Shown here: piece after piece, positions 6,164 through 54,351 of the stretch
Numbering within the stretch: position 1 is the stretch's first letter
How the letters are laid out: every line of letters starts with the position of its first letter
Source: a bacterium
GTDB lineage: Bacteria > Patescibacteriota > Minisyncoccia > Phycocordibacterales > CAIZLB01
Length of the DNA stretch: 64,000 nt
Reading direction: 5' to 3'
Assembly: GCA_031411135.1 (NCBI GenBank)
Contig: JANOAN010000009.1
Span: forward strand, 7,175 to 71,174
Position numbers and translations under genes: made by a program
The notes under the pieces: generated by a model
Told to the model about the DNA's origin: nothing
What the model saw: the letters and a program-made list of their open reading frames with translations, nothing else
Databases searched by the model: none

Positions 6164-8032
6164 TTATTTTCCTGTTAAAAGTCGGGCTAATTGAGTCTGA
6201 TCTATAGCTTTTATGTATATATCATACCATAACGCCAACATGAGTAGAATAAAGATCCGGCGTGAGTTATCCACTTTAAAAGGATCGTGGGTTTTAAATA
6301 GTAGATCTACTGAATCCACATTAAAATCTGACTTTATAAGCTCGTTATTAAGTACATAAGCCTTTATCGCATCCGGATTATCCTTCAGCCAATGCTTTAT
6401 AGGTGTTGGAAAGCCCAATTTTTTGCGTCCTGAAGTGGTTTCTGGCAGAATTCCTTTGAAAGCTTGACGTAAGGCATATTTCGTGGTTTTTCCTTTATAT
6501 TTCAAAACATCCGGGATAGTTGAAGAGACTTTGTAAACTTCCATATCAAGAAACGGCACACGAGCTTCTAACGAATGCGCCATCGTCATTTTGTCGGCCT
6601 TTGCTAGAATATCTCCAGTCAACCAGTAGTTTATATCAACCATTTGCATCTTTTTTGAATCAGACAAATTAGTAATTTTTTTATAAAAAGGAGAGAGGAG
6701 ATCAGCACTTCCCTGCCCACTTCCCTCTTTTAATAGTGAACCAATCTCAGACGTTGAAAAAACGCGTGCGTTACCGATATATCGCTCTTCAATTGATAAA
6801 AGCGATCGTTTTAAATAATTTTTTCCAAAGAAGTTAAACGGAAGCTTTGTTAATGGTTTTATAATAAATCGAGGAATCCATGATATAGCATTTAGTGCAA
6901 AAGGTTCTCGGTAAATATTATATCCTCCAAATAGTTCATCCGAGCCCTCGCCAGACAAAACTACCTTAACTTTTTTAGAAGCTTCGCGAGCTAGAAAATA
7001 CAAAGCTACCGCCGAAGGATCTGCCACTGGTTGATCAAAGTGCCATGCAATATTTGGTAAGTTTTTTAAATATTCATTAAAATCAACTTTTATTTCCGTA
7101 TGATTTGTACCTAATACATCTGAAACCTCACGGGCCTCTCTTTGTTCACTTACTTCATCAAAACCGATAGTAAAAGTCTGTACCGGATCCAGTCCGTTCT
7201 CTTTTCGAATTTTTTGCATCAACGTCACGATAACCGCGCTATCAATTCCACCTGAGAGAAATGCTCCAACCGGCACATCAGAGATCATGTGATGCTCGAC
7301 TGAGTCTTTCATGACATTAAAAATATCTTTTGAAAAATCCTTATCGCTATCTGCGCCAAACTGATACTCCCAATATTTTTTCACTTCATACGAGTTATTA
7401 TTTAAATCAATCTTCAAAAAGTGTCCCGATGGAAGTGTGTAAATATCTTTAAAAAACGTTTCTTTAAGAGGGTTATATTGAAACTCCATATATAGTGATA
7501 AAGCTTTTCTATTTAGCTCTCTCTTATATCTTTCATCCTTCAAAAGTGCCTTAATCTCAGAAGCATAACCAACCACAACTCCCTTTTCTAATCGATAATA
7601 AATCGGTTTAATTCCGAATTGATCTCGTGCAATAAACAAAATATTTTTCTTTTGGTCATAAATAGAAAATCCAAACATTCCTCGCAATTTATTCAGCATT
7701 TCTTCGCCGTATTCTTCGTATGCATGCACTAAAGTCTCCGTATCGCTTTCGGTCTTAAAAATGTGACCCTTAGACTTCAAATCCACTGACAATTCTTTGT
7801 AGTTATAAATCTCCCCGTTAAAAACAATCGTCACTGTGCCGTCCTCATTTGAAATTGGTTGATGTCCTCGCGACAAATCAATAATAGACAATCGACGCAT
7901 CCCAAAAGCAAACTTATCCTCAATTAAAAAACCGTCATCGTCCGGTCCTCGATGTTTAATTTCATCCACCATCAATTTGATGGCTTTCTCACTAATACTT
8001 TTTTCCGCTATAATTCCTGCAATTCCGCACAT
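6164..8032 (-). CDS. asnB: Asparagine synthetase (glutamine-hydrolysing)
   Basis: N-terminal MCGIAG (class-II amidotransferase Cys2) and SGGIDS PP-loop. 622 aa. Confidence 0.9.
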   Translation of the reverse strand: MCGIAGIIAEKSISEKAIKLMVDEIKHRGPDDDGFLIEDKFAFGMRRLSIIDLSRGHQPISNEDGTVTIVFNGEIYNYKELSVDLKSKGHIFKTESDTETLVHAYEEYGEEMLNKLRGMFGFSIYDQKKNILFIARDQFGIKPIYYRLEKGVVVGYASEIKALLKDERYKRELNRKALSLYMEFQYNPLKETFFKDIYTLPSGHFLKIDLNNNSYEVKKYWEYQFGADSDKDFSKDIFNVMKDSVEHHMISDVPVGAFLSGGIDSAVIVTLMQKIRKENGLDPVQTFTIGFDEVSEQREAREVSDVLGTNHTEIKVDFNEYLKNLPNIAWHFDQPVADPSAVALYFLAREASKKVKVVLSGEGSDELFGGYNIYREPFALNAISWIPRFIIKPLTKLPFNFFGKNYLKRSLLSIEERYIGNARVFSTSEIGSLLKEGSGQGSADLLSPFYKKITNLSDSKKMQMVDINYWLTGDILAKADKMTMAHSLEARVPFLDMEVYKVSSTIPDVLKYKGKTTKYALRQAFKGILPETTSGRKKLGFPTPIKHWLKDNPDAIKAYVLNNELIKSDFNVDSVDLLFKTHDPFKVDNSRRIFILLMLALWYDIYIKAIDQTQLARLLTGK

Positions 8033-8037
8033 AAGTT

Positions 8038-9312
8038 TTATTTTTTAGGAGGTAAATATAACATAGGGTCTAAATACGCATCAACCGCTGAAACTGGCAT
8101 TGTTAGGCTTTTTCCAGGGCAGGACGCGCTTGGTCTAGTCTGCACGTTTACCGCTGTTGCCACATAAACACTAAGGTGTAGGTGAGGCCCTGTGCTATAG
8201 CCCGTATTTCCACTATAGCCGATAATTTGTCCTGCATCCACCTTATCACCCGCTTTAACACTTATGACCGACATATGGCCATATGTGGCCGCTAAACCGT
8301 TGTTAAACTTGATAAGTACCCATTTACCGAAAGACACCCTTCTACAATCTATATCTGTATCCCCTGTTCCTGCTACAATCCCAGAAGCGACTGCTTTTAA
8401 AGTTGTCCCAACAGGTACGCCAAAATCCATTCCATTGTGAGAGCCTGAAAGATACAATCTCTTACCTGCAGCAGTTTTTCCGAATAGTTGAGTAATTCGA
8501 ACATCATCTACTGGCCACATTAATGCCGATGAACCTGATTGCGGAATACTATTTGGATCAAGCTGAAACTTAATTTTAGATTCATAGTCGAAGATTTCCT
8601 TTTCGAATGCAATTTTTTTAGCAGTCGCATCAGCCAGAAGTTTTTGATACGCCGCTTCTTCTGACTTTGTATCAGTTAATGTCTTCTGCTGCTCAGTTTT
8701 TGTAACTTCAACTACCTTTTTCTTGCCCGTCAATTCCTTTTGCAAATCAGCTAATTCCTGCTTGGTTTTTTCTACTGCGGTTTTATTAGTCTCAAGTTTT
8801 TGCTTTTCATTTTTAATCTGAGAAACTTTATCTTGGATACCTGCATTAAATTGGTCTTGTTCATCAAGCTTTACAAAGAAATCAGAAAAGTTTTTATTGT
8901 TCAGTAAGTTGATAACTACGTGAAAATTATCATTCTGGGAAATCTCTCTAAGGCTCTTTTCCAAACCATCATGTAATGTATCTATCTTATTCTTTGAATC
9001 AGTAATTTTCGAAGAGAGTTGTTTAATGTTTAAGTTGGCAGAATCAATTTTGGTTTGAATTTTAGTAATCTCCAGGGTCAGTGCTTTTCGACTTTGTTCT
9101 AAAACAGTGAGCTGCTGTTTTAGACTCGCCCCTTTATCACTCGCCTGGGAGGCGAGGTTCTGATACTTGGCAATTTCAACATTCAAAGCCTGGATTTTCT
9201 GATTCTTATCGTCAATTTCTCTTTGAAGTGCAGCCACGTCCACACTCTGGGCACTTGCAAAAGGTGCTACAACAAGAAGTATTATTAAAATAAAAAGCTT
9301 ATTCATTTTCAT
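8038..9312 (-). CDS. Secreted coiled-coil M23 family peptidoglycan endopeptidase (EnvC-like)
   Basis: Signal peptide, long coiled-coil region, and a C-terminal M23 domain (H..D ... GNTGYSTGPHLHL). Confidence 0.8.
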   Translation of the reverse strand: MKMNKLFILIILLVVAPFASAQSVDVAALQREIDDKNQKIQALNVEIAKYQNLASQASDKGASLKQQLTVLEQSRKALTLEITKIQTKIDSANLNIKQLSSKITDSKNKIDTLHDGLEKSLREISQNDNFHVVINLLNNKNFSDFFVKLDEQDQFNAGIQDKVSQIKNEKQKLETNKTAVEKTKQELADLQKELTGKKKVVEVTKTEQQKTLTDTKSEEAAYQKLLADATAKKIAFEKEIFDYESKIKFQLDPNSIPQSGSSALMWPVDDVRITQLFGKTAAGKRLYLSGSHNGMDFGVPVGTTLKAVASGIVAGTGDTDIDCRRVSFGKWVLIKFNNGLAATYGHMSVISVKAGDKVDAGQIIGYSGNTGYSTGPHLHLSVYVATAVNVQTRPSASCPGKSLTMPVSAVDAYLDPMLYLPPKK

Positions 9313-10429
9313 GGGAAAGGCCTATTTTAAGAAGCTCTTTCGCAATGATGTGTGCTGCATCTTTTTTGGCGATTTTTTGAGTAGCAATTCGCATTCTATC
9401 GCTTATGTTTGGATTTTGAACAATTCGGTCAATTTCGTTAGCAATAATTTGCGGACTTAAGTTTGACTCTTCAATAACAACAGCGGCACCTTCACGGGCA
9501 TAATTGTAGGCATTTTTTCGCTGATGATCCCCATTTGAATTAGTGATTGGTACAATAATACTTGGAAGGCCCCAACATGCGATTTCAAAAATAGTTCCTC
9601 CACCTCTTGAAATTACTACCGAAGCACAGCCTGCGCTCATGCGAAGTGCGATAGTCGAAAGATAGTCAAACGGTCGATAACGTTCTTTGTGTGGGTGACC
9701 TTCAAGGGCAACGTCAGCAATGCCTTTAACACTCTCGATGTTGGCTTTTCCAACTTGATGAATCACTTGATATTTATTTAGTAAACCAGGTAGAGCATTC
9801 AAAATAGAATCATTGATAATTTGAGCTCCAGTTGAACCTCCCAAAATTAAAATAATGGGGACATTGGGTTCCAAATTTAAATATTCTAAAGCACCAGTGC
9901 TTAACACTTCACGAATTTCTTTTCGCACTGGTTGTCCTGTGTATGCCACTTTGTCTTTTGGAAAAAATTCTGCAGCTTCTTTAAATGAGACAGCTACTTT
10001 GTATGCAAATTTTCCTGCCCAAGCATTTACGCGACCAGGAACGCTGTCTGAATCATGAATGACCAACGGAATGCGCAAAATTCGGGCAGCCATATATGCT
10101 GGAAAACTTGAAAATGCCCCTTTCCCGAAAACCACATCTGGAAAAATAATAAACATTTTTATAAGTGCTACTACGCATCCCCATCCCATCTTGAAATAGT
10201 CAACAAAGTTTAGAATGGATTTATATAGGCGCTTCTTTCCCGCTGGAACTTTTTCAAATCGAATATCCAAGTCAAAAAGCTCTTTTTCATTGTATGGAGA
10301 GCCTGACATGAAATAAATATTCGGGTCCAGTATCTTCTCCTCTCGGGCGGTTTCCCTGATTGCTTCAGCCACGGCAATTAGAGGGTAAAAATGCCCGCCA
10401 CTTCCCCCTCCTGTCATCAAGATTTTCAT
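9299..10429 (-). CDS. murG: Undecaprenyl-PP-MurNAc-pentapeptide N-acetylglucosaminyltransferase
   Basis: MKILMTGGGSGGHFYPLIAVAEA N-terminus and glycosyltransferase family 28 architecture. Adjacent to ftsW. Confidence 0.9.
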   Translation of the reverse strand: MKILMTGGGSGGHFYPLIAVAEAIRETAREEKILDPNIYFMSGSPYNEKELFDLDIRFEKVPAGKKRLYKSILNFVDYFKMGWGCVVALIKMFIIFPDVVFGKGAFSSFPAYMAARILRIPLVIHDSDSVPGRVNAWAGKFAYKVAVSFKEAAEFFPKDKVAYTGQPVRKEIREVLSTGALEYLNLEPNVPIILILGGSTGAQIINDSILNALPGLLNKYQVIHQVGKANIESVKGIADVALEGHPHKERYRPFDYLSTIALRMSAGCASVVISRGGGTIFEIACWGLPSIIVPITNSNGDHQRKNAYNYAREGAAVVIEESNLSPQIIANEIDRIVQNPNISDRMRIATQKIAKKDAAHIIAKELLKIGLSHENE

Positions 10430-10438
10430 ATAAAGTTA

Positions 10439-11545
10439 TTATACTATTTTCTTCTGAAACCTCGAAATGTTAATAACTACCCCCACAGACGCCAGAGCAA
10501 AAAACAAAGCAGTACCTCCGTGGCTTATAAATAGTAGTGGTGTTCCAGACAATGGAATAATGGCAAGCATCGCTGCAATATTTAAAAAAGATTGAAGCGC
10601 AATCAACACAATAATTCCCACAGCAAGCAATGACCCGTACATTTCCGTCGAGCGTATGGCTACTTTGAATCCTTGGAAAGTAAAAAGAAGATAAAGAATT
10701 ATAATAGCGAAAGATCCAACGAATCCGAATTCTTCAGATGCTACAGCAAAAATCGAGTCCCCTATTGGCTCTGGTAAGAAATTAAACTTCTGAACACTTT
10801 GTCCAAAGCCTCGGCCGAACACCCCACCCGAACCGATTGCGATCAGTGATTGTTCAATTTGATAACTTGAACCCTGCGGATCTTTGGATGGATCAATAAA
10901 TGTTTTAACTCGCTCCATTAAATATGGCCGCATGAAAATCAAACAGATTAAACCAATGAGACCAACGACTCCGATACCAAAAACATGTAGCCATCTGCCA
11001 CCTGCTGCTATGAACATGGCAGTTCCAGCTGCAGCCACCACAATAAAAGTATCAGTATCTGGTTGCATTAAAATTAAACCAGCAGAAATTCCGAGCATAA
11101 TTAGAAACGGAACGGTACCGTGCTTGAAAGTATCCATTTTATTTTTAGCTGCCGTTAGTAAAGTTGCTAGATACATTACAAACCCTATCTTATAGAATTC
11201 TGCAGGCTGAAAGTTAAAGGATCCTATTGATATCCAACGACGTGCACCACCGTGAAAAAATCCTACACCCGGAATAAAAACTGCAAGCATGGCAAAAAAT
11301 GAAAATAAAAATACCCAGAAAGACATTTTACGCCACCAGCTGAAGTGAACTACAGATGCAACAAAGCACGCGATACTTCCCGCAAGAAGTCCTAATACCA
11401 ATTGATTAAACATTACAGAATAGTATTTGACTTCTCCATTATTATTAGCGAGAAGCCCGCTTGACGCCGAAAGGAAAATAAAAACTCCAAAAATAACAAG
11501 AACTAGAACAATAATGAAGAAAGGACGGTCGACTTTGCGGTGCAT
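10439..11545 (-). CDS. ftsW: SEDS-family peptidoglycan polymerase (FtsW/RodA); its position suggests FtsW
   Basis: 10 TM helices and the SEDS motif GARRWISIGSFNFQPAEFYK. Lies between mraY and murG. Confidence 0.8.
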   Translation of the reverse strand: MHRKVDRPFFIIVLVLVIFGVFIFLSASSGLLANNNGEVKYYSVMFNQLVLGLLAGSIACFVASVVHFSWWRKMSFWVFLFSFFAMLAVFIPGVGFFHGGARRWISIGSFNFQPAEFYKIGFVMYLATLLTAAKNKMDTFKHGTVPFLIMLGISAGLILMQPDTDTFIVVAAAGTAMFIAAGGRWLHVFGIGVVGLIGLICLIFMRPYLMERVKTFIDPSKDPQGSSYQIEQSLIAIGSGGVFGRGFGQSVQKFNFLPEPIGDSIFAVASEEFGFVGSFAIIILYLLFTFQGFKVAIRSTEMYGSLLAVGIIVLIALQSFLNIAAMLAIIPLSGTPLLFISHGGTALFFALASVGVVINISRFQKKIV

Positions 11546-12378: not shown

Positions 12379-13443
12379 CTAACTTATGAGTGCAATAATC
12401 GCCCCTAACAATCCACACACAATAGAGATAACCCAATATCTCATCGTTATTTTAGACTTTGGCCAACCCATCGCTTCAAAATGATGATGCAGCGGGGCAA
12501 TTTTAAAAACTTTATATCCAAAATATTTTTTTGAAATCATTTGAATAGAAGATGAAAGAGATGTTATAACCAGAGGGAAAGCCACTATAGGAAGTACGAG
12601 AACTTCATTTGTAAGAAATGCCACAACTGCAAGCGTTACTGTAATTCCAATCATTCCAGTCTCCCCCAAGTAAAACCTGGCCGGTGGAATGTTAAACCAC
12701 AAAAATGCGAGAATTCCTCCTGCAACAACTGCACAAAAGGCAGAGAGGTCAATCTGGTGATTTCCAAAAGCAATTACTGAATACGCAACAAACGCAGAAG
12801 ACATTACCCCAGCAGCTAGTCCATCAATTCCATCTATCACTGATCCTGAAAAAGTGGACATAACAACAAAAATAAAGAATGGAATAAACCACAAGCCCAG
12901 ATAAAGATCTCCGTCAAATGGAATATGTATTGAAAGATTTTCGAGCTTAAAATAAAACCACCACGCTCCGATTGCACCAATTAAAATAACCATAAGAGTA
13001 CGCATGGTGCGTGAAATTCCATCACTCATTTTTAATCCCTTTCCATAAATCTGGAGGAAGTCATCTACGAGTCCCATAATTGAGGCAAAGAGAAGAATTG
13101 CTAAAGGTAAAATAGTTTGGTTACGACTTAAAAAGTTCAACTTTTCAGCCATTGGACTATCAAATAAATAAGGTAGAACTGAAAACAGAAGGCTCACAAT
13201 GGCAACCGCAAGCCAGACAATCACCCCACCCACCCGAGGGGTCGAAGTTTCAGCGTCCTCATTGTGAATCTTCATGAAAGCCTTAGACATTTCTTCGGTG
13301 TTTTCGTTGCTACGTGAAGCCTTTTTCCACATCTTGTACTTGTACATGTAGCGTGTCAGAACTGGCGTAATCAAAATTCCCACGATGAAAGTTAAAAATG
13401 ACGGCAGGGTGATTTTGATTACGTTTATGATAAGGTCAGTCAT
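12379..13443 (-). CDS. mraY: Phospho-N-acetylmuramoyl-pentapeptide transferase
   Basis: MraY/WecA polytopic topology with conserved DD..D and the C-terminal ..HHHFE.. motif. Confidence 0.88.
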   Translation of the reverse strand: MTDLIINVIKITLPSFLTFIVGILITPVLTRYMYKYKMWKKASRSNENTEEMSKAFMKIHNEDAETSTPRVGGVIVWLAVAIVSLLFSVLPYLFDSPMAEKLNFLSRNQTILPLAILLFASIMGLVDDFLQIYGKGLKMSDGISRTMRTLMVILIGAIGAWWFYFKLENLSIHIPFDGDLYLGLWFIPFFIFVVMSTFSGSVIDGIDGLAAGVMSSAFVAYSVIAFGNHQIDLSAFCAVVAGGILAFLWFNIPPARFYLGETGMIGITVTLAVVAFLTNEVLVLPIVAFPLVITSLSSSIQMISKKYFGYKVFKIAPLHHHFEAMGWPKSKITMRYWVISIVCGLLGAIIALIS

Positions 13444-16186: not shown

Positions 16187-16314
16187 AGGGGTTAGTTTAG
16201 CAAAAATAAGCTTTTTTTGAAAGACATTGGATAATTATACATATTTATTGTACCATTTTCACACCCTGACATAGTGTCAGAAGAGTACACAACCCTCAAC
16301 AAGGAACCATACCA

Positions 16315-16758
16315 ATGAACCTTCCGATACATAAACGCCCCGATGGCTTGCCAATTCGAATCATCCTTTGCTCAGCTTTCGGAGCGACGGGGGGCCTCCA
16401 CCTTTGCGAAACAACACTTCGAGAAACCTTCAAGATCAGCACTCGAAAAGGTTTCTGCGTCGTTAAGCAACTTGCTGAGATGCCCAACATCTTGCGGACA
16501 GACATAACGCAGGCCGTGGTCGTCTTCTCCAACGACAAAAGACTTATCCATGAACAGATTGCCAACCTAAAAAAATGGGTTGCGGAATGGAAAGCAAAAA
16601 ACCCCAAACTCTTCGCCGTCCTTTATAGCCGACACACGCCGGAAGAACAGGATACTTTTGATGGGTACATTGTGTGGTCAGATCTTAAGGTGCCGGATAT
16701 CCACGCAAAGTTTCGTGAGTTCTTCACCCCTGTGCTCGGTGAACCTCCCAAGTCGTAA
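16315..16758 (+). CDS. Hypothetical protein (GC-richer)
   Basis: 147-aa ORF. It ends exactly at the start of the repeated terminator module. Confidence 0.4.
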   Translation: MNLPIHKRPDGLPIRIILCSAFGATGGLHLCETTLRETFKISTRKGFCVVKQLAEMPNILRTDITQAVVVFSNDKRLIHEQIANLKKWVAEWKAKNPKLFAVLYSRHTPEEQDTFDGYIVWSDLKVPDIHAKFREFFTPVLGEPPKS

Positions 16759-16763
16759 GTCCC

Positions 16764-16821
16764 AACCCCGCCCCATTCACCAGATCCCCGCTCTCGGTCG
16801 AAGGAGCGGGGTTTTGAGTTT
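16764..16821 (+). repeat. ~57-bp 3'UTR/terminator module, copy 1 (..cccgctctcggtcgaaggagcggggttttgagttt)
   Basis: About 95% identical to 17588..17643. Contains a hairpin cccgctc..gagcggg followed by a T-run. Confidence 0.7.
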
Positions 16822-16940
16822 GGTATTTAATGTGTTATAAAAACACAAACAAACCGCTCTTTTAATCCAGTGTGCAATTCCGCATACTTGCTTTTCCGAG
16901 CATCCACGAAACCATCCACCGCCCGAAACCCTTCTAACTT

Positions 16941-17585
16941 ATGAACTCACCGATTGAACCGCCTAACCAACCCTTCTTTATCGTCCCGGCTGATGTAAAC
17001 TTCATCGAAAGATGGATAGAGCCTGCTGCCCAAAAAATCCAGAGATTCGTAGGGCTAGACTGTTTCTTTTGGGGAACAATTGCTTTCTGGATTTCTTTGA
17101 TCTTCGCTGTCGTAAACATACTCCTGTTTTCTGTCACGATAGCAGTCTCCCTTCATACAGGTAAATTCTCCAACGTGCTACTCGGTGGGCTGTGCCTCTG
17201 GGTTTTGATCACTCTGAGAAAACACACGTGGCACAATCTAACCTGTCACGACTGCGGAATAAGAGCACAGCGAAAATTGGCTTACGAAATGCTGGTCGAT
17301 GGATATAAAAATCCGTTCCTGTTTCAACCTCGGAACTTGCTACTTACAGCATTATTAATGATCTTGATTACGATCACTGAGATAGGATTTCCATGGCAGA
17401 CAATCCTGGTGATAGCTCTGTTCAAAGCACCGTTCGTCGCCGGCTACATTGGTCAAGCATTGTGCTCCTGCACACCATTACCACCAGGAAAGAGCAAGCT
17501 GCGTCAAGCATGGGAAGCAGGAAAACTGTGGTTGGCTTCAGCTACCGCACCTGCTACCCCAATGCCCGAGCCTAATGGCGCCTAA
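16941..17585 (+). CDS. Hypothetical polytopic membrane protein (GC-richer)
   Basis: 214-aa ORF with several TM helices. Ends exactly at repeat copy 2. Confidence 0.45.
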   Translation: MNSPIEPPNQPFFIVPADVNFIERWIEPAAQKIQRFVGLDCFFWGTIAFWISLIFAVVNILLFSVTIAVSLHTGKFSNVLLGGLCLWVLITLRKHTWHNLTCHDCGIRAQRKLAYEMLVDGYKNPFLFQPRNLLLTALLMILITITEIGFPWQTILVIALFKAPFVAGYIGQALCSCTPLPPGKSKLRQAWEAGKLWLASATAPATPMPEPNGA

Positions 17586-17587
17586 CC

Positions 17588-17643
17588 ACCCCGCCCCATT
17601 CACCAGAGCCCCGCTCTCGGTCGAAGGAGCGGGGTTTTGAGTT
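17588..17643 (+). repeat. ~57-bp 3'UTR/terminator module, copy 2
   Basis: Direct repeat of 16764..16821 with 2–3 mismatches. Confidence 0.7.
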
Positions 17644-17644
17644 T

Positions 17645-17836
17645 TTATAACCCCAGCGACTGCATCTGACTAAAATTCGAAAGGAAGCTTGGTATAGCAA
17701 ATAGCAAACCAATCGCTGGTAAGACCACAGCTAGCACACTGATAATAAAAGCCCATTTTATATACTTTCTAGTTTTTTCTACCGATGCGTAAATTGCGTT
17801 AATTTTTTCTTCAAGTGATTTTAAAGTTGGTTCCAT
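17645..17836 (-). CDS. Small membrane protein (hypothetical). Last gene of the Ddl/ATP-grasp operon.
   Basis: 63-aa ORF with one TM helix. Confidence 0.3.
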   Translation of the reverse strand: MEPTLKSLEEKINAIYASVEKTRKYIKWAFIISVLAVVLPAIGLLFAIPSFLSNFSQMQSLGL

Positions 17837-17848
17837 GTATACATTATA

Positions 17849-18856
17849 TCAGCTTGAAAATGAATTTGAAATAAATTCTGCCATCGATATCCCGGCTGCT
17901 TTTAATTCTTTTGGAAATAGAGAGTTTTCCATAAGCCCTGGGAACGTATTTATTTCTAAGACATAAATTTTTTCATGCGAAACAATGAAGTCTACCCTGG
18001 CATGCGATTCAATTTTAAAGATTCTAACGATAGTTTTAATAATGTCATGTACTTTTTCTAAAACATCTGCACTTAAGGTCAGCGCAGGACAAATTTCCTG
18101 AGTATCTGCATCATCATATTTAGCTTTATAGTCAAAGAAATCTCTTTTTGTAATAATTTCTACTGGTGGAAGAATCCTCAGTTCATTTTTATTCTTTATA
18201 AAACCAATTGTGTATTCCCTACCTTGAATAAACTCTTCACACAATACCTGATCTGAAAAATAGGAAACATTATCTATTCCCCCGGGGAGATCTTCAATTT
18301 TTGTACAAACTGTACATCCTCGGCTAGCCCCACAGGTAACGGGTTTAATAATGATTTTTTTGTTGCATTCCTTGAAAAAAGATTCGAGAGTCTCTAATTT
18401 TTTTTGATTACTTAAATCTAAAACCATACCTTTTGGCACCCTTATTCCTGATGAAGCCATCATCTGTTTAGTCCAGTTTTTATCAAAACAAAGTGCTGAA
18501 CTTGAAAATGGGGTCGAGAGAATTTTGATTCCTCCCAAAGCACACAGGGCAGGCAAAATTCCATCTTCTCCGAGAAAATTGTATATAGAAATAATGGCAT
18601 TATTCCCAAGCTTTTTTAATGAATCAATTGACAAATCCTTTAGATCCTTCAGTGAAAGTGTTTTTGGATGATTTATAATTTCTCTAATCAATTCTGGATT
18701 TTGTAAATTAGACTTTTTATCATCTGTCACAAGGCTGTCTACTAGAACAATATTGGCCTTGTAATCTTCAGGAAGGTTATTAAGAAGATTTAAAGTAGTT
18801 GCAATCGAGCCGCTGCTCGTATTTAGGCAAGTTGAAGTAAAAATTATTATTTTCAT
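17849..18856 (-). CDS. ddl: D-alanine–D-alanine ligase family ATP-grasp enzyme
   Basis: N-domain GEDGILPALCALGGIKILSTPFSSSALCFDKNWTKQ matches Ddl GEDG..QG.LE..IPYVGS...SA..MDK..TK. C-domain has EFIQGREYTIG ... FFDYKAKYDD ... ARVDFIV ... LEINTFPGL. Confidence 0.7.
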   Translation of the reverse strand: MKIIIFTSTCLNTSSGSIATTLNLLNNLPEDYKANIVLVDSLVTDDKKSNLQNPELIREIINHPKTLSLKDLKDLSIDSLKKLGNNAIISIYNFLGEDGILPALCALGGIKILSTPFSSSALCFDKNWTKQMMASSGIRVPKGMVLDLSNQKKLETLESFFKECNKKIIIKPVTCGASRGCTVCTKIEDLPGGIDNVSYFSDQVLCEEFIQGREYTIGFIKNKNELRILPPVEIITKRDFFDYKAKYDDADTQEICPALTLSADVLEKVHDIIKTIVRIFKIESHARVDFIVSHEKIYVLEINTFPGLMENSLFPKELKAAGISMAEFISNSFSS

Positions 18857-19419
18857 GTAATTTTATTTATTTTAATAATATTTCCCGAAAATGAATCAAT
18901 GAACTTTTTAGCATGAACGAACCCATCAATTATGCACAATTCCTTTTTAGTTGACGGGTGATGAACATAAAAACCGTGCACGACCCCATTTTTTATTTCA
19001 CATCCCAAAACGACAATAAGATGACCACTTTTACCCCTATAAAATCCAAAACCAACGGAAGCAATAATCAAGCCACCACTTTCGATTATTTTTCTCATAG
19101 AATCTATCGAGACATTTCTTTCTGCAATTGATTCAAGATAAAATTTTTCCGCAGTGAATTCTGCGATTTTTGAATGTATCCAACCAACCCCATCTTTATA
19201 CGCTCCGACATTGAACGCCTCATATATTAGGTTTCCAATGGATACTTTGTCCCTTCCAAATGCCTCTGCTACCATTTTTATGCATGCTATTCCACAAGCC
19301 TTCCTATTCCAAAAAAATGCCTCCTCTTTATTTAACATTCCTTTTTCCTTCCAATTTTTTAAAGTATTTTGGTCATAAAAAGGAACATATTCTATAGGTA
19401 GTAGTATTTTCTTTCTCAT
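18853..19419 (-). CDS. Peptidase-C39-like (papain-fold) Cys/His protein; could be a peptidase or an acyl/aminoacyl-transferase
   Basis: Putative catalytic Cys in NRKACGIACIKMV and downstream His in GHLIVVLG. Spacing is typical of C39/C39_2 domains. 4-nt overlaps with both neighbours indicate translational coupling. Confidence 0.5.
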   Translation of the reverse strand: MRKKILLPIEYVPFYDQNTLKNWKEKGMLNKEEAFFWNRKACGIACIKMVAEAFGRDKVSIGNLIYEAFNVGAYKDGVGWIHSKIAEFTAEKFYLESIAERNVSIDSMRKIIESGGLIIASVGFGFYRGKSGHLIVVLGCEIKNGVVHGFYVHHPSTKKELCIIDGFVHAKKFIDSFSGNIIKINKIT

Positions 19420-20252
19420 AGTTTTTTGTCATTTATTAAGTACTCAAAAATATCATCGTACATTTTACTAATAATCGCCTTCTGCTTTTCACCTAAATTT
19501 GCAAAGTAGCTGCTGTCCGGTGCTGAGTTAACCTCGAGAACACTATAATTCCCTTTTTCTGGCTTAGAAATATCTCCTTGAATCTTTACGTCAATTCCAC
19601 AAAAATCTAAGTTTAGTTCCTTCCCGATTCTTAAAGCTAATTTAAGAAAGTCAGAGTAAGTCGACGAAGTAACATCCTTGGCGATTCCCCCCAGACTTAG
19701 ATTAGATGGTATGTATGGCCCAACTGGGTGCTTGCTAAAGACACAGATCACCTTCTTCCTTAAGACTACAAATCGATAATCGACCCCTTTTATATATTCC
19801 TCTAGTATTATAGTGCTATCAATTTTTTCGATATTTTTTATTGCTTGAAAAAAATCATCCTTACTTCTTACAATTGACACACCTTCGCCCTTAGAAAGCG
19901 AAGCTGGTTTTACAACAACAGGAAATTTGTGAGTTTTCAAAAAACTATTACAAATATTATTTATATTTTCTCTATTTTTAGATACAGAAATATTCAATCC
20001 ATCTGGAACCTTTATCGAGCAATCTTTTAAAGCTTGTTTAGTTAAATGCTTATATTTAGCAATAGTAAAAGCTCCTGCAGGATTAATATCATTCAGTGTA
20101 TATCTGAAATATCTCTTATTTCCATCTGGTCTTGCAATATAGCCTGACGAACCATCTTCAAATAAACGAATGCCTAACTTTCTCTTTAATGCACCTTTCC
20201 TCGAAAGCGATGACATCAGAGACCTGACACTATGAGGAATTTTTTTGTCCAT
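19416..20252 (-). CDS. RimK/GshB-like ATP-grasp ligase (amino-acid ligase)
   Basis: ATP-grasp motifs FPVVVKPASLSKGEGV, IILEEYIKGVDYRFVVL and SVLEVNSAPD. Confidence 0.65.
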   Translation of the reverse strand: MDKKIPHSVRSLMSSLSRKGALKRKLGIRLFEDGSSGYIARPDGNKRYFRYTLNDINPAGAFTIAKYKHLTKQALKDCSIKVPDGLNISVSKNRENINNICNSFLKTHKFPVVVKPASLSKGEGVSIVRSKDDFFQAIKNIEKIDSTIILEEYIKGVDYRFVVLRKKVICVFSKHPVGPYIPSNLSLGGIAKDVTSSTYSDFLKLALRIGKELNLDFCGIDVKIQGDISKPEKGNYSVLEVNSAPDSSYFANLGEKQKAIISKMYDDIFEYLINDKKL

Positions 20253-20304
20253 CCAAGAAGATTACCTCATCAACATTAAATTTAAATAAAAAAGTTATTA
20301 ATTT

Positions 20305-21138
20305 CTATTTATTATAAAGTTCGATTACTTTATTCCTCATTTCTTCCGTTACAACTTCTGGGCGTTCGAACAAGTTAACCTTATATACATCTCCGATATT
20401 TACGACTAATTTTCTTCTCCACAAGTCAGCTTTAATTCTTCTAAAAGAAACAGGTATAACCAGAGCATTTGTATTTCGCGCCAGGATTGCCGCACCCCAC
20501 TTGAAAGGTCCGATCGGATTAGCATCAGTTTTATCCATCCAGATTTTTCCTTCTGGGAAAATAGCTACGGTTCCACCTCTTTCTATAATATCGGCTGCAG
20601 GTATCGTTGCTATTTCGGCTCCCTTTCCATAAGTCACTTTTATTACTCCGAATAAAAGGTAGACTGCATGTAAAATTCCAGTGTATTTTAATACTTTTAA
20701 GTACAAATGGCTCACTTGTGTCGTACCCATGAATCTAAATGGTTGTATTCTTGAAAATGGAGAGACAAAGAGATCAAAAATGAAGCTGTCATACGAGCTA
20801 ATATGATTTGAAATAAATAATATTGGCTCTTTAATATCCTTTAACTTCTCTCTTCCGTTGATAGTTAGGTCAAAAAACGAATGGTAGAAAATATAAAAGA
20901 TTGGCCAGCATACAACTTGAAATACGTAAGAAATAAAGTGTCCAAATTGATAATTCATCTGTCTGATTATGTCTCCAAAGAACTTTCTACCTAGAAAAAA
21001 AGCGACTCTTTCAGAGTCGCCTTGTTTCCGGCTGATATTCTTAATAACGTTTGAGGAATTCTCTATCGTATGATCGTAATGTTGATTCATTTGGTGACGC
21101 AATGTTGAGTGCGTCGCTGTAGCTATATAATAGCACAT
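20305..21138 (-). CDS. PlsC-like (lysophospholipid/glycerolipid) acyltransferase
   Basis: H(X)4D motif FISNHISSYD and FPEGK motif. N-terminal TM helices. Confidence 0.65.
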   Translation of the reverse strand: MCYYIATATHSTLRHQMNQHYDHTIENSSNVIKNISRKQGDSERVAFFLGRKFFGDIIRQMNYQFGHFISYVFQVVCWPIFYIFYHSFFDLTINGREKLKDIKEPILFISNHISSYDSFIFDLFVSPFSRIQPFRFMGTTQVSHLYLKVLKYTGILHAVYLLFGVIKVTYGKGAEIATIPAADIIERGGTVAIFPEGKIWMDKTDANPIGPFKWGAAILARNTNALVIPVSFRRIKADLWRRKLVVNIGDVYKVNLFERPEVVTEEMRNKVIELYNK

Positions 21139-21163
21139 TTAAGCTTGATAAGCAACGTTGGTA

Positions 21164-21670
21164 CTATGCACGAGATGAATACAGCAAGGAAAAGAGAACT
21201 ATAATTAGCATAATCACAGTACCTGACGCCGAAGCCAAAAATAATTCTATTGGTGAGGACAAGTGATAAAAATCTGGCAATGCCAATGTCTGAAAAATTA
21301 TAATAAAACTTTCGGAAACTAAACCTAAAGATAAAAATATGGAATCTAAAATTTTATGTATTCCCTTCCTGCTAATTTCATAACCAATAATTCTCTGGAC
21401 AATATAGAAAATAAAAATATAAATAATAGTAAACAACCCAAGACGATAATTGAAATTATCACTAAAAAATCCGTCGGGCAAAATAGATGCAATCGGGTGC
21501 CAATGAGTAAAGGCCTGATAAAGCATCACTGCTGGAAAAAAAGAAATGAGAAGAACATAGAGAACTTTACGTCCTCTGTAAAAAGCGAGAAGTGTCATTA
21601 CTAAAATTACAATTCCGAGAGTTAAATTCTCTGGTATGACATTTAAAAAGTTCGGCATTTGATTTTGCAA
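21164..21670 (-). CDS. Polytopic membrane protein (hypothetical). First gene of the putative operon.
   Basis: 168-aa ORF with 5 hydrophobic helices. Confidence 0.4.
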   Translation of the reverse strand: MQNQMPNFLNVIPENLTLGIVILVMTLLAFYRGRKVLYVLLISFFPAVMLYQAFTHWHPIASILPDGFFSDNFNYRLGLFTIIYIFIFYIVQRIIGYEISRKGIHKILDSIFLSLGLVSESFIIIFQTLALPDFYHLSSPIELFLASASGTVIMLIIVLFSLLYSSRA

Positions 21671-28082: not shown

Positions 28083-29411
28083 TCAGTTGTTGTAGATCGG
28101 ACTTCGCAGTCTCAGATACTGCTTATCACCTGAGGTCGACAACTCGATCCTCCAGTTGCCGCCCACCAGCGTTGGCGTTACGTTCAAGGATGAAAAATTC
28201 ACAAGGTCTGTGGTGACCTCAATTTTCCCCCCATACAATGGCATGTAGCCCAGGTGGAAACTTGGCCACTCGTACCTTGTGGTAGTAACACCCGAGACAA
28301 CGCTCAGGACTGTTGACGTAACTTGTGGTAGCCCTTCGACCAACAGCAAGGTGGCGTTTTTCTTGCACGCCACGTCATAAACGATACCACCAAGCCATTG
28401 CGGGACGTTTTCTTGTCCGACACTGCTTGAAACGTTTTGAAACATGGCACCACTCGCAGTATAGTTTTGAAAAATCGCAATTTCGTGCGATTCCCCTCCT
28501 GCCATTCCAACCACATTCTGGTAGCTGCCTGACGGCAACATCCATGCATGATTGAACCCGTTTCCATAGGCGTTCCCGTTCACGATAATCCAGCTGTAGC
28601 CGTTTCCAGCGTACACATCTGAGATATTTGTGTTATGGGGATCGTTAGCAAGGAGGATACCTTGGCCGAAGGTTGACACACCAAATCCTGTCATCACACC
28701 GTTCGTGACAATGGCCAGGAAATTGCTTCCGCCAGACATTGCCGTGATCTGATCTGTGTTTGCCCATGGTTTCAAAGTCCCCCCAGACGGGATTGCAGGC
28801 AACATTCTCGGCGCCGTACTTCCGCCATTGATGTCTCCCCATGCAGTTAGGCGAAATCGCCCGGAGGAAATGGGTAGGTTTGCATCATAGTAGTATACGA
28901 CTGTCGCGTTGTAGGTTGTAGCAAACCCCAGAACGCTGTAGTTCGAGGTCGGATTTATTCCTGCAAATGGGAACTGTCCGACACGATTTGCAGCATTTAG
29001 TCCGCGAGTCACGACTTTTCCATTATCGAGGACAAATGCCGAATGCTGGAGACCGCAGTCGATTGCAACAACCCGTGTTGCTCCGTACGTTGCACAATCG
29101 GCCTTTGTGAAGTTAGCCGCCCGGTTATCCGGGAAAGCTGTGTTTGTAAACCCGGCAACTTCCCCGTTTTCACGAAGTGCGAGGCCGAATCCATCTCCTG
29201 CCTTTACCGATATAGCGTCAGTGATGTTTGGGATCGCACTTTTGGGAAAGCTCCCAATTGCGACGATCCCTGTGTTCACCTGTGCAGATGCTGTTGAAGT
29301 TAAAATGAGGGTGATGAGTGTCAAAATGGCACTCCCGATGCTGTTTTTCGTTTTAGTTTTCATGAGGACAAAGTCCGATTGAAAAATAACACTAATTATG
29401 CACTTAGTCAA
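28083..29411 (-). CDS. Secreted RCC1-repeat (beta-propeller) protein, GC-richer
   Basis: Signal peptide. Repeats fit G..HS.AL..DG.V...G.N..GQ, for example DCGLQHSAFVLDNGKVVTRGLNAANRVGQF. Adjacent to a tRNA. Confidence 0.55.
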   Translation of the reverse strand: MTKCIISVIFQSDFVLMKTKTKNSIGSAILTLITLILTSTASAQVNTGIVAIGSFPKSAIPNITDAISVKAGDGFGLALRENGEVAGFTNTAFPDNRAANFTKADCATYGATRVVAIDCGLQHSAFVLDNGKVVTRGLNAANRVGQFPFAGINPTSNYSVLGFATTYNATVVYYYDANLPISSGRFRLTAWGDINGGSTAPRMLPAIPSGGTLKPWANTDQITAMSGGSNFLAIVTNGVMTGFGVSTFGQGILLANDPHNTNISDVYAGNGYSWIIVNGNAYGNGFNHAWMLPSGSYQNVVGMAGGESHEIAIFQNYTASGAMFQNVSSSVGQENVPQWLGGIVYDVACKKNATLLLVEGLPQVTSTVLSVVSGVTTTRYEWPSFHLGYMPLYGGKIEVTTDLVNFSSLNVTPTLVGGNWRIELSTSGDKQYLRLRSPIYNN

Positions 29412-29512: not shown

Positions 29513-31279
29513 CTAACGTACTGTCGAGGAAGCAGTGCTTGTTGCTGTGTTATTAACAACATCCCCCACTCCTCTATCCGGCGGAATTTGATAATAATTA
29601 ATTAAGTATTTTGTAAGTTCAATAAATGGCTTTGCCAAAGTTTCAGAAGCATAGTTCACGCCACGTGGGTTTACAGTGTAAAGAAATACAATAAATTTTG
29701 GATCGTAAGCCGGTAAAAATCCGATGAACGAGTGTAAATACTGATCCTCTTGATATCCCGCCCCCTTAATTGGAATCTGGGCAGTTCCAGTTTTAGCAGC
29801 AATAGAATATCTTGGATTTTTACTTTTACCATCAAGAAGAGAAGTGTCTACGTTATTAATAAGCATTCGTGTTACAGCAAGCGCCGTTTCCTCTTTGATT
29901 ACTCTCCCCCCTTTTTCAGGTTCAACATTTTTATCAATACCGATTCGATAATTAATCTCTTTTACCACGTGCGGTGTCACCAAATACCCGCCGTTGGCAA
30001 TAGTTGCCTCTGCACGAATAGTTTCAATCGGACTGATGGCAATACCCTGCCCGAACGCAGCTGTCACGAATTCAACATCATTATTGCGCTTCAAAGTATC
30101 AATCAGTCCTGATGCCTCATTCGGCAAATCGATTCCGGTTTTATCTCCCAATCCAAAGGATTCAAGATACTTTCTAAAAAGTGCATTGCCAACTTGCTGT
30201 TCAATAAAAACGAACCCCGTGTTCAAAGACTTAGCTAATGCGTACAACAGCGTAATTGTTCCGCGTCCTTTTTTGTCGAAGTTTGAAATAGTTCTATCAT
30301 TTACCTTAACCGATCCTTTGTCGTTATATGTTGTTGAAGCTGTAACCTTTCCAACATCGACCCCAACTGCCATTGTTAAAGGTTTAATAATCGAACCCAT
30401 TTCATACACAGATTCTACAAGGTCATTTCTAAGATCACCCAGATCAGAAACCGACCCTAAATTATTCGGATCAAACGAAGGTGTTTTCCCCATTGCATAA
30501 ATCTGGCCATTCATCGGATTCATGATAATTCCGCCGGTTAATTTAGAACCATACTGCTTTTCAATTCCGACTAACAAATCCTCCAAATATTTCTGCGTAT
30601 CTGGTTCAATACTTGTAACAATGTCACCTTCCATTTTTTCCCCATCAATGGAATTTTTAATATTAGAAAATATTTCAGCAAAGAAGTTCACATATACATC
30701 CTCACCACCTCGCCTTAAAGTTTCATCATAATACCTTTCAAGCCCATAACGACCGGCGTATTCATCACCCTTAAAACCCATAAACCCGAGCACATTTGAC
30801 GCTAAAGAACCACCTGGGTAGTAGCGCCACTTCTCTTTGTATATAGAAATTCCTGGAATCTTTAAATCTGTGATTTTTTTGCCAGTTGCTTCATCAATAT
30901 GCTTTGCAATTTCTTCGTATGAATCGTTTTGCTTGTTTGCCCTCATTGTAAAGTCCTGTTCATCAATTTCAAGAACCGCAGAAAGCTTTTTAAAAACTTC
31001 TGCAACACCTTCCGCGTTAGACTTCTGCAAAATTTTTGGATTAATTGCCACATTGAATCCAGTTTTCAAAGTAGCCGCTGAAATCAACTTCCCATCCTTA
31101 GTACTAAAATAAATCGTACCGCGATTGAAAACCTCGCCTGAAGAACGCTGGTATTGTCGGTCTGCACGGTCTGCGAAATCATCATAGTGTATGATCTGAA
31201 CAGAATAAAGCTTTGCCACAAGCATAAGCACAATGGCCAATATAAAAAATGAAATGATGCGGATGCGTTTCTGGAGCAT
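29513..31279 (-). CDS. ftsI: Class B penicillin-binding protein (transpeptidase); its position suggests FtsI
   Basis: N-terminal TM helix, PBP dimerisation domain, and transpeptidase motifs SIIKP, SLN, KTGTA. Confidence 0.8.
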   Translation of the reverse strand: MLQKRIRIISFFILAIVLMLVAKLYSVQIIHYDDFADRADRQYQRSSGEVFNRGTIYFSTKDGKLISAATLKTGFNVAINPKILQKSNAEGVAEVFKKLSAVLEIDEQDFTMRANKQNDSYEEIAKHIDEATGKKITDLKIPGISIYKEKWRYYPGGSLASNVLGFMGFKGDEYAGRYGLERYYDETLRRGGEDVYVNFFAEIFSNIKNSIDGEKMEGDIVTSIEPDTQKYLEDLLVGIEKQYGSKLTGGIIMNPMNGQIYAMGKTPSFDPNNLGSVSDLGDLRNDLVESVYEMGSIIKPLTMAVGVDVGKVTASTTYNDKGSVKVNDRTISNFDKKGRGTITLLYALAKSLNTGFVFIEQQVGNALFRKYLESFGLGDKTGIDLPNEASGLIDTLKRNNDVEFVTAAFGQGIAISPIETIRAEATIANGGYLVTPHVVKEINYRIGIDKNVEPEKGGRVIKEETALAVTRMLINNVDTSLLDGKSKNPRYSIAAKTGTAQIPIKGAGYQEDQYLHSFIGFLPAYDPKFIVFLYTVNPRGVNYASETLAKPFIELTKYLINYYQIPPDRGVGDVVNNTATSTASSTVR

Positions 31280-54279: not shown

Positions 54280-54351
54280 TCCCCTGTAGCTCAGCGGTAG
54301 AGCAATCGACTGTTAATCGATTGGTCGTAGGTTCGATCCCTACCGGGGGAG
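54280..54351 (+). tRNA. tRNA-Asn (anticodon GUU)
   Basis: 72-nt cloverleaf: acceptor TCCCCTG/CGGGGGA, D-arm GCTC-AGCGGTA-GAGC, anticodon arm ATCGA-CTGTTAA-TCGAT, T-arm GTAGG-TTCGATC-CCTAC, discriminator G. Confidence 0.85.

Follow-up and report, generated by a model that had tools for sequence, protein, structure and literature searches.

Genes of a C39-like family recur beside those for Ddl and MurF, which synthesize D-Ala-D-Ala and attach it to the peptidoglycan precursor, or are fused with them, and they also recur beside genes for VanX-like dipeptidases. The fact that this occurs in unrelated bacteria suggests that the C39-like protein encoded in the 64 kb stretch of DNA analyzed here (the window) probably assists cell-wall precursor synthesis in a way not yet described and is not part of a lipid-modifying system. 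In the literature searched, we found no earlier description of the link between Ddl or MurF and C39. Of the new module proposed in an earlier note on this DNA, a peptidoglycan-related core of ligases and a Cys-His protein is retained, while the lipid-modifying system is not.

Gene layout and regional setting

All six co-directional ORFs that had been noted 3' of dnaJ are present on the minus strand of the window (Table 1); dnaJ ends at position 21743, 72 nt upstream of memA. The ATP-grasp stop codon and the C39-like start codon overlap by the 4 nt ATGA (19419–19416, TGA within ATG), and the C39-like stop and the Ddl start overlap in the same way (18856–18853). Both overlaps, which had been taken to indicate translational coupling, are real and fit such coupling but do not prove it; ATGA overlaps are frequent in bacteria. 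The hairpin, with its T-run on the plus strand and A-tract on the minus-strand side, is likely a bidirectional terminator closing the block. The TATAAT hexamer is possibly the block's own promoter; no −35 match was found for it, and the two-hexamer scan did not report the site.

The block is flanked by mraZ-rsmH-ftsI on one side and mraY-ftsW-murG on the other, all on one strand, and its trio of ATP-grasp ligase, C39-like protein and Ddl sits within a loosened division/cell-wall (dcw) gene array. The 64 kb window contains no MurF gene. Genes for chaperones and tRNA synthetases lie scattered through the region. The whole metG-to-aspS region is syntenic in the window's clade, and the entire six-gene block is kept only in these close relatives sharing synteny across the region.

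Table 1. Features of the six-gene block and its boundaries (positions in the window).
Feature	Position	Strand	Basis or remark
memA, polytopic membrane protein	21164..21670	-	no family match; 5 predicted TM helices (hydropathy scan)
PlsC/LPLAT-family acyltransferase, 277 aa	20305..21138	-	NHISSYD, FPEGK; PF01553
Compact ATP-grasp amino-acid ligase, RimK/LysX/CphA-G type, 278 aa	19416..20252	-	
C39-like (PF13529) papain-fold Cys-His protein, 188 aa	18853..19419	-	key part
D-Ala-D-Ala ligase (Ddl), 335 aa	17849..18856	-	PF07478 122 bits
63-aa single-TM membrane protein	17645..17836	-	ORF and hydropathy
G+C-rich hairpin, 14 bp, between convergent gene ends	17604..17639	no strand	terminator scan
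Perfect TATAAT hexamer, directly after the dnaJ stop codon	21737..21742	-	read from sequence

The C39-like protein and its association with Ddl and MurF

Pfam profile searches agree with the family assignments made earlier (PlsC-like, RimK-like, C39-like and Ddl), and the motifs quoted in their support, ACGIAC, GHLIVV, NHISSYD and FPEGK, are all present in the sequence. The C39-like protein scores 38.6 bits against PF13529 (Peptidase_C39_2, cut-off 24), and its AF2 model has a papain fold (pLDDT 96). The Cys of ACGIAC (Cys42) is kept in 169 of 170 homologues and the His of GHLIVV (His133) in all 168, while Gln17 is kept in 120/125 and position 154 is D, H or N in 159/167. We propose Gln17, Cys42, His133 and His154 as catalytic residues, corresponding to the catalytic Cys and His, the oxyanion Gln and the third polar residue of PF13529. 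Together, these features mark it as a well-folded enzyme of the papain type whose Gln/Cys/His site, completed by His, Asp or Asn, is conserved. Signal peptides and TM helices are absent from the short forms of the family and almost absent from the long forms, which suggests that it is probably a cytoplasmic thiol enzyme.

Since the best structural matches are peptide- and protein-processing proteases, with C39 leader peptidases as the top class, a protein substrate is also possible. The fold and the Gln/Cys/His/Asp-type site are common to the C39 leader peptidases (PCAT, ComA; PDB 3erv; PF13529), but the C39-like protein is free-standing, predicted to be cytoplasmic and coupled to cell-wall ligases, without an ABC transporter fusion or a double-glycine substrate. 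As a true bacteriocin-processing peptidase C39 it falls short (PF03412, 17.1 bits against a cut-off of 22). The family comprises 854 representative clusters at E <= 1e-3, occurs in Proteobacteria and high-GC lineages as well as in uncultured bacteria with small genomes, and includes fusions to GNAT and carrier domains. Lists of phage endolysin catalytic domains include PF13529 (PMC8223927), and a published survey describes it only as transporter-associated (PMC10318531).

Three fusions and seven independent neighbourhoods, from loci with a GC content of 0.40–0.74, connect the family with Ddl or MurF. One fusion protein (P0089) consists of a full Ddl (N and C domains) and a C39-like domain; in two others (P0047 and P0050), a MurF-like part without the N-terminal domain (TIGR01143, 169 and 203 bits, respectively) is joined to such a domain, which in P0047 is 56% identical to the window protein. 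The gene order is Ddl-C39-MurF in L044, Ddl-C39 with overlapping genes in L064 and C39-MurF in L076 and L078, and C39 adjoins MurF in L092. In L012 (a Rhodospirillaceae MAG), MurF, Ddl, a Ddl-like ATP-grasp, C39, an M15 VanX-like dipeptidase and a racemase are found together, and in L090, Ddl, a PLP enzyme, C39 and M15; at both loci, the C39-like gene is directly upstream of the VanX-like dipeptidase gene. A C39-MurE pair lies next to mraY in L018.

Ddl or MurF is located within 3 kb of the C39-like gene at 7 of the 52 non-redundant loci outside the window's clade (binomial P = 9e-9 to 1e-5 for chance rates of 0.5–1.5%), and neither is nearby at the remaining 45. Other cell-wall genes show no enrichment. 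No link to Ddl or MurF is seen for P0004 (51% identical, flagellar/MFS context) and P0005 (36% identical, NUDIX context), the two nearest homologues outside the clade. As for the co-occurrence in other genomes expected from the earlier note, the C39-like protein does occur with Ddl, but the RimK-like ligase and the acyltransferase fail to accompany it outside the clade.

The ligases and the neighbouring genes

The best NCBIfam matches of the window's Ddl are all Ddl models, and in alignments its C-terminal motifs are canonical (omega-loop K-Y, R-x-D as RVD, E-x-N and S-L), in agreement with the PF07478 match. Its scores do not reach the NCBIfam Ddl cut-offs (185.5 vs. 310, 179.4 vs. 245.65 and 176.5 vs. 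243), the Pfam search gave no PF01820 match, and the GGxSxE motif of the N-terminal domain, which carries Glu15 of the D-Ala1 site, is replaced by TSTCLNTSSGS, as in the orthologue of L004. Judged by these motifs, the N-terminal domain is atypical, and the description of the protein as a bona fide D-Ala-D-Ala ligase needs this caveat.

The second ATP-grasp protein matches RimK and Dala_Dala_lig_C in Pfam and is, by its profile matches, a compact RimK/LysX/CphA-G-type ligase of the RimK/GshB class, as had been suggested. It is neither the housekeeping RimK proper (30 bits vs. a cut-off of 331, no rpsF) nor a cyanophycin synthetase, with which it has G-domain similarity alone, in two stretches (112.6 bits vs. 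850). RimK, LysX, ArgX and the G domain of cyanophycin synthetase are ATP-grasp ligases extending a peptide or protein carboxylate, and the window protein shares their fold, NLSxGG loop and ExN; however, its scores for these families all lie far below the cut-offs, about 60 residues of the CphA G domain, the G-omega-like 54-aa insertion and the CphA N and M domains are absent, and the locus has no LysW-like carrier. Linkage of this ligase to the C39-like gene is confined to the window's single syntenic clade, and its nearest outgroup accompanies FolC and folate genes rather than cell-wall genes.

The acyltransferase exceeds the PF01553 threshold (47.4 bits vs. 23), contains the HX4D and FPEG motifs of the superfamily and is similar to the Aas acyltransferase domain (NCBIfam). 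It does not qualify as PlsC proper or OlsA (TIGR00530, 40.4 bits vs. 102.95), and no olsB-like gene was seen. The memA gene, which starts at TTG 21670 or ATG 21658 and whose product has no Pfam or NCBIfam match, is kept only in the window's clade, and only there is a PlsC-like acyltransferase found near C39-like genes. The 63-aa protein, which begins 12 nt after Ddl and has its TM helix at residues 30–48, is kept in L001, L004 and L021-23. Nothing in the comparison of genomes connects the acyltransferase or the two membrane proteins with the core, and they are most likely housekeeping genes of a compact genome, unrelated to their neighbours here. The six-gene unit proposed earlier is not supported, since outside the syntenic clade neither these three genes nor the ATP-grasp are found with the C39-like gene.

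Possible roles of the C39-like protein

We favor, with somewhat less than an even chance of being right, an explanation in which the trio of ATP-grasp ligase, C39-like protein and Ddl is the functional core and the C39-like protein acts on the D-Ala-containing precursor pool. Weighing against it are the 45 loci without Ddl or MurF, the unlinked P0004 and P0005, the restriction of the ATP-grasp link to one clade, the atypical N-terminal domain of the window's Ddl and the lack of a MurF gene in the window. The links to Ddl and MurF make a peptidoglycan precursor the most plausible of the targets named earlier. VanX, VanY and LdcA hydrolyse D-Ala-D-Ala or trim the D-Ala end of precursors and are zinc (M15) or serine (S66) peptidases. 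The C39-like protein resembles them in being a putative cytoplasmic hydrolase whose gene occurs together with those for Ddl-type ligases, MurF, racemases and M15 dipeptidases (L012, L090, L044) but differs in being a papain-fold, putative thiol enzyme. Van-type cluster features are present in L012 and L090; in contrast, the window has no VanH-, VanX- or racemase-like gene nearby and a Ddl of the D-Ala-D-Ala-type K-Y loop, and it is not a Van-type precursor reprogramming cluster.

It is unlikely that the C39-like protein hydrolyses free D-Ala-D-Ala or the ATP-grasp product and so brakes the ligase. The fusion with a canonical Ddl in P0089 and the direct junction with Ddl in the window agree with such a synthetase/amidase pair, for which glutathionylspermidine (trypanothione) synthetase/amidase (GspSA), in which an ATP-dependent amide ligase and a papain-fold Cys-His amidase are fused and work on one small molecule, offers a precedent, albeit with CHAP instead of C39-like, GspS-type instead of Ddl or MurF and other substrates. 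However, this activity would be redundant beside the dedicated VanX-like D-Ala-D-Ala dipeptidase adjoining the C39-like gene in L012 and L090, and the MurF fusion better fits a stem-peptide substrate. We consider improbable a transpeptidase resembling phytochelatin synthase, which would use a D-Ala-X amide as the acyl donor and move D-Ala or a peptide to another acceptor; the GNAT and carrier-domain fusions speak for it, but no acceptor-specific partner is identifiable, and transfer and hydrolysis are not told apart. Phytochelatin synthase and the pseudomurein endoisopeptidase PeiR are 12–14% identical to the C39-like protein and have other substrates, and PeiR, unlike it, is a lytic enzyme. 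A GatD-like partner that supplies the ligase with ammonia or an amine to amidate the stem peptide is very unlikely. In MurT/GatD, a Mur-type ligase without an N-terminal domain works with an amidotransferase, and the MurF-like part of P0047 and P0050 is like MurT in this respect, but the fold is that of papain/C39 and not of a class-I glutamine amidotransferase, and we know of no papain-fold glutaminase partnering a Mur or ATP-grasp ligase.

The earlier model, in which an amino acid or dipeptide unit from the ATP-grasp and Ddl is passed on by the C39-like protein, as by BtrH, and set on a lipid (OlsA-like) or a precursor by the PlsC-like and membrane proteins, now appears quite improbable. Six adjacent co-directional genes, an ATP-grasp adjoining a clan-CA protein as in BtrH/BtrJ (butirosin) and a PlsC-family acyltransferase nearby as in OlsA/PlsC (ornithine lipid) recall this model, and the phosphopantetheine carrier domain fused to the distant family member P0169 means that acyl groups bound as thioesters may be handled by some relatives. 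On the other hand, only adjacency speaks for the OlsA-like part, the acyltransferase and membrane proteins occur with C39-like in one syntenic clade, the BtrH_N domain (PF14399) and a carrier-protein gene are missing from the block, and in other lineages the recurring neighbours are Ddl, MurF and VanX-like proteins, not lipid enzymes. A graspetide or other RiPP system, with macrocyclization by the ATP-grasp and leader removal by the C39-like protein, is extremely improbable: ATP-grasp and C39-type protease are a classic pairing in some RiPP clusters, and the structural class fits, but no precursor gene (as had already been noted) or ABC transporter is present in or near the block, the PF03412 score is under the cut-off, the ATP-grasp model is nearer to ArgX, LysX, RimK and Ddl than to PsnB, CdnC and the macrocyclase MdnC, and the family's conserved partners are Ddl and MurF. 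There is, finally, a low probability that six housekeeping neighbours without a joint function are packed in a small genome with incidental overlaps. The whole-region synteny in all close relatives, the general frequency of ATGA overlaps, the interspersed chaperone and tRNA-synthetase genes and the unlinked P0004 and P0005 would fit this, and it likely holds for the acyltransferase and membrane proteins, but for the C39-like protein the three fusions and seven neighbourhoods argue against it.

If the C39-like protein does act on the precursor pool, it would form a thioacyl-enzyme on a D-Ala-containing amide bond of cytoplasmic peptidoglycan precursors, presumably at their D-Ala-D-Ala end; candidate substrates are UDP-MurNAc-penta- or tetrapeptide, the free stem peptide and the D-Ala-D-Ala dipeptide. 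The thioacyl-enzyme would then be hydrolysed, acyl transfer being less likely, and the enzyme would trim, edit or recycle stem-peptide ends and supply or correct substrates for Ddl and MurF, much as VanY or LdcA do. Most likely, the RimK/LysX-type ligase of this lineage would attach an amino acid to a carboxylate in that pool of peptides or dipeptides, so that either an alternative dipeptide or a stem-peptide branch results.

More broadly, it is possible, if rather doubtful, that the D-Ala-D-Ala branch of peptidoglycan precursor synthesis includes a widespread cytoplasmic enzyme so far overlooked, namely the C39-like subfamily. It would cooperate with Ddl and MurF as a thiol-dependent carboxypeptidase, editing enzyme or transpeptidase of the stem peptide, and in this lineage would have taken on a RimK/LysX-type ligase as well, by which a non-canonical stem-peptide residue is installed or re-ligated.

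The six-gene block and its surroundings

Immediately after dnaJ lie six co-directional minus-strand genes, as the earlier note had described, joined at both of the junctions it named by real ATGA start/stop overlaps; all the motifs it quoted were found in the sequence. A TATAAT hexamer directly follows the dnaJ stop codon. The D-Ala-D-Ala ligase (Ddl) held up in part: the omega-loop Lys-Tyr and the catalytic R-x-D, E-x-N and S-L are canonical, but the protein reaches none of the NCBIfam Ddl cut-offs, and its N-terminal part is without GGxSxE. Judged by domain and motifs, and not by curated cut-offs, it is a member of the Ddl family.

In this low-GC uncultured bacterium, the block sits between the two groups of a loosened dcw array on the same strand, with chaperone and tRNA-synthetase genes interspersed; murC, murD, murE and murF were found nowhere in the 64 kb window. 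Directly downstream of the M23 peptidase and murG genes is an AsnB-type glutamine amidotransferase, a candidate peptidoglycan amidation enzyme. The genome is small and carries two MreB paralogues, MreC and a second PBP2-like gene, and there is also an RCC1-repeat protein. The gene for a large serine recombinase runs into the 3' end of a tRNA gene, and the stretch that follows, at 56–62 kb, consists mostly of orphan ORFs, with one NUDIX and one GNAT-methyltransferase gene; the region is possibly an integrated element. The second orphan plus-strand ORF in the table has a homologue at that position in L004, a locus of the window's clade; none was detected there in the clade loci L021–L023.

Coordinates of features in the window and, where an L number is given, in loci carrying homologues
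Feature	Position	Strand	Basis or remark
Membrane protein, 5 predicted TM helices	21670-21164	-	ORF; TM prediction
PlsC-family acyltransferase	21138-20305	-	PF01553, 47 bits
ATP-grasp protein, 278 aa	20252-19416	-	ORF; family models
C39-like protein, 188 aa	19419-18853	-	PF13529, 38.6 bits (cut-off 24)
Ddl	18856-17849	-	PF07478, 122 bits
Single-TM protein, 63 aa	17836-17645	-	ORF; TM prediction
Strong hairpin closing the block against the convergent gene	17604-17639		Terminator scan; sequence
mraZ	33808-34242	-	dcw group, 34-29.5 kb
rsmH	32886-33803	-	dcw group, 34-29.5 kb
PBP/FtsI-like	29513-31279	-	dcw group, 34-29.5 kb
mraY	12379-13443	-	dcw group, 13.4-6.2 kb
ftsW	10439-11545	-	dcw group, 13.4-6.2 kb
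murG	9299-10429	-	dcw group, 13.4-6.2 kb
M23 peptidase	8038-9312	-	dcw group, 13.4-6.2 kb
AsnB-type glutamine amidotransferase	6164-8032	-	
MreB paralogues	41410-42486; 47248-48261		
MreC	40683-41444		
Second PBP2-like gene	38634-40436		
RCC1-repeat protein	28083-29411		
Serine recombinase	54340-55899	-	
tRNA gene	54280-54351		
Segment of higher G+C	16200-17640		G+C 0.44
Orphan ORFs in this segment	16315-16758; 16941-17585	+	
Ddl paralogues with altered omega-loop	L012 8091-9976; L044 6931-7956; L064 6952-8004; L090 5776-6858		C39-linked
335-aa outgroup ATP-grasp loci	L007 8001-10402; L009 8001-10354; L008 7512-10261		
Phenylalanyl-tRNA synthetase beta subunit	L019 7617-9917		NlpC/P60 domain inserted, residues 356-477

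An identical block occurs in six loci of the window's clade (L001, L004, L011 and L021–L023), with C39-like proteins 67–100% identical. Since the whole metG-to-aspS region is syntenic in the same loci, this conservation says little about function. Outside the clade, the scanned loci have no acyltransferase, membrane proteins or ATP-grasp of the window's type near the C39-like gene, and the two C39-like homologues next in identity have none of these partners and lie in unrelated surroundings, flagellar/MFS genes for P0004 (51%) and a NUDIX context for P0005 (36%). The expected conservation of the neighbourhood is borne out for the C39-like gene with Ddl or MurF, which recur together beyond the clade, but not for its other members. 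The acyltransferase and membrane proteins are best treated as neighbours, and the proposed lipid (OlsA-like) system loses its footing, as the acyltransferase accompanies the C39-like gene only in the clade.

A conserved, probably cytoplasmic Cys-His protein and a divergent ligase

By its sequence, the C39-like protein is a member of PF13529 and clan CA. In comparison with known structures, the highest values were obtained for the C39-like protein 3erv of B. anthracis (16.9) and the C39 peptidase domains of PCAT and ComA (15–17), followed by the pseudomurein endoisopeptidase PeiR (15.2) and the phytochelatin-synthase homologue Alr0975 (14.8). The BtrH-like transferases CtaG, CcbD and AziU3 gave only 8.4–8.8, and the BtrH and graspetide parallels drawn earlier were both rejected after membership tests; membership also excluded the bacteriocin C39 peptidases as the class of this protein. 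Across 172 family members the active site is kept (Cys42 in 169/170, His133 in 168/168, Gln17 in 120/125), as the earlier note had anticipated for Cys and His, and position 154 is Asp, His or Asn in 159/167. The window's protein has no signal peptide or TM helix; a hydrophobic N-terminus is absent from the short forms of the family and, with two exceptions only, from the long forms. Alongside the fusions to ligases of the cytoplasm, this points to a cytoplasmic location for the family. Searching PDB sequences with the C39-like profile returned only chance matches to triosephosphate isomerase (E about 0.5), and a scan of viral contigs returned no relatives. Catalytic domains of phage endolysins include PF13529 (PMC8223927).

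For the ATP-grasp protein, the best-ranking sequence model was the cyanophycin synthetase G-domain, then GshAB, NAGGN synthetase and the RimK family, all far below their cut-offs. RimK proper is thereby rejected, and so is cyanophycin synthetase despite its top rank; the protein fits no curated family at the level of these models. The motifs for ATP and Mg are intact, as is the NLSxGG loop; from this and the ranking, the protein is judged a competent amino-acid ligase, one of those extending a peptide or protein carboxylate. Its nearest outgroup consists of 335-aa proteins of groundwater bacteria, which look like the cyanophycin synthetase G-domain and adjoin FolC or lie between 5-formyl-THF cyclo-ligase, CofE-like ligase and DHFR genes; this suggests that the 335-aa family is a folate or pterin glutamate ligase. 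We rejected a folate role for the window's protein, as these distant homologues form a different subfamily (27–35% identity) with a 54-residue insertion that it lacks.

Association with the D-Ala-D-Ala branch

An exhaustive profile search gave 854 representative clusters of C39-like proteins at E ≤ 1e-3, and three fusions with Ddl or MurF are among the best 150 of them. In P0089 the C39-like domain follows a complete Ddl comprising both the N and the C domain. In P0047 and P0050 it forms the C-terminal part of MurF-like proteins (murF being the best NCBIfam model, at 169 and 203 bits) that lack the N-terminal domain of MurF; the copy in P0047 shares 56% identity with the window's protein. Other clusters carry the domain fused to a GNAT acetyltransferase or a phosphopantetheine carrier domain (P0056, P0196 with 68 member sequences, and P0169).

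Genome and metagenome scans, the latter with a 10-sequence alignment, added independent neighbourhoods. In L012, a Rhodospirillaceae MAG, the C39-like gene accompanies MurF (314.6 bits, above cut-off), Ddl, a Ddl-like ATP-grasp, an M15 VanX-like dipeptidase and an Asp/Glu-type racemase. The others are Ddl-C39-MurF (L044), overlapping Ddl-C39 (L064), C39-MurF (L076 and L078), Ddl, PLP enzyme, C39 and M15 dipeptidase (L090), C39 adjoining MurF (L092) and C39-MurE beside mraY (L018). The GC content of the Ddl/MurF-linked loci ranges from 0.40 to 0.74, and they therefore come from several lineages. The second ATP-grasp of L012, between Ddl and the C39-like gene, is not orthologous to the window's, so the arrangement of two ligases plus a thiol enzyme recurs once, by analogy. 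In L019, a Parcubacteria MAG, the C39-like gene and gyrB lie immediately downstream of a phenylalanyl-tRNA synthetase beta gene, a layout that L020 resembles by ORF sizes alone (802 aa, C39-like, 704 aa).

Outside the window's clade, 52 loci remained once sequences had been merged at 90% identity and loci with less than 3 kb of flank dropped; in 7 of these 52, Ddl or MurF lies within 3 kb of the C39-like gene (binomial P = 9e-9 to 1e-5 at assumed chance rates of 0.5–1.5%). There was no such enrichment of mraY, ftsW, murG or PBPs, indicating that the association, strong but not universal (45/52 loci are without it), is specific to enzymes making, adding or destroying D-Ala-D-Ala.

The omega-loop Tyr is a specificity determinant of Ddl. 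It is replaced by His, Leu or Arg in several accessory paralogues that neighbour C39-like genes, a hint that non-canonical dipeptides are made there; Lys-Tyr is retained in the Ddl of the window. The altered paralogues of L012 and L090 occur together with racemase or PLP-enzyme genes as well as VanX-like ones, and such loci resemble van-like reprogramming clusters of environmental bacteria.

Possible role in precursor metabolism

Taken together, the fusions and neighbourhoods support the core of the original proposal, namely an undescribed module of ligase and Cys-His protein that targets peptidoglycan precursors, and we consider it probable that the C39-like protein is functionally tied to the D-Ala-D-Ala branch. 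Acting on an amide in the precursor pool that contains D-Ala, the enzyme would form a thioacyl intermediate, which would then be hydrolysed or, less likely, transferred; stem-peptide ends would thus be trimmed, edited or recycled, feeding or correcting the substrates of Ddl and MurF, and the ATP-grasp would work on this pool too, by adding an amino acid. We advance this general mechanism tentatively, at slightly below even chances, and any specific bond named as the target is unlikely to be the right one. The MurF fusions, and the recurrent place next to a distinct VanX-like dipeptidase, suit a role like that of VanY or LdcA. The Ddl fusion suits a pure D-Ala-D-Ala dipeptidase paired with its synthetase as in GspSA, but in L012 and L090 such an activity would be superfluous.

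The nearest functional analogues are precursor hydrolases of the VanX/VanY/LdcA type and ligase-amidase pairs such as glutathionylspermidine synthetase/amidase, which the C39-Ddl pairing resembles. Enzymes that edit or trim precursors and are encoded beside Ddl and MurF are of a known kind; the differences here are the catalytic class and the lineage-specific extra ligase. PF13529 is described only as single-domain peptidases near transporters in a classification of papain-like peptidases (PMC10318531), a survey of Mur chimeras includes no peptidase fusions (PMC10214165), and no description of C39-Ddl or C39-MurF coupling was found in the literature reachable here.

Peptidoglycan synthesis in the cytoplasm is, to our knowledge, regarded as fully known, and its steps are major targets of antibiotics: Ddl is hit by D-cycloserine and D-Ala-D-Ala by vancomycin. 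If our reading is true, a conserved Cys-His enzyme that is tied to Ddl and MurF by fusion or coupling across several phyla would represent a new accessory step, which could be precursor trimming, editing, recycling or reprogramming, and would bear on wall building or salvage in small-genome uncultured bacteria and on van-like resistance clusters of environmental bacteria.
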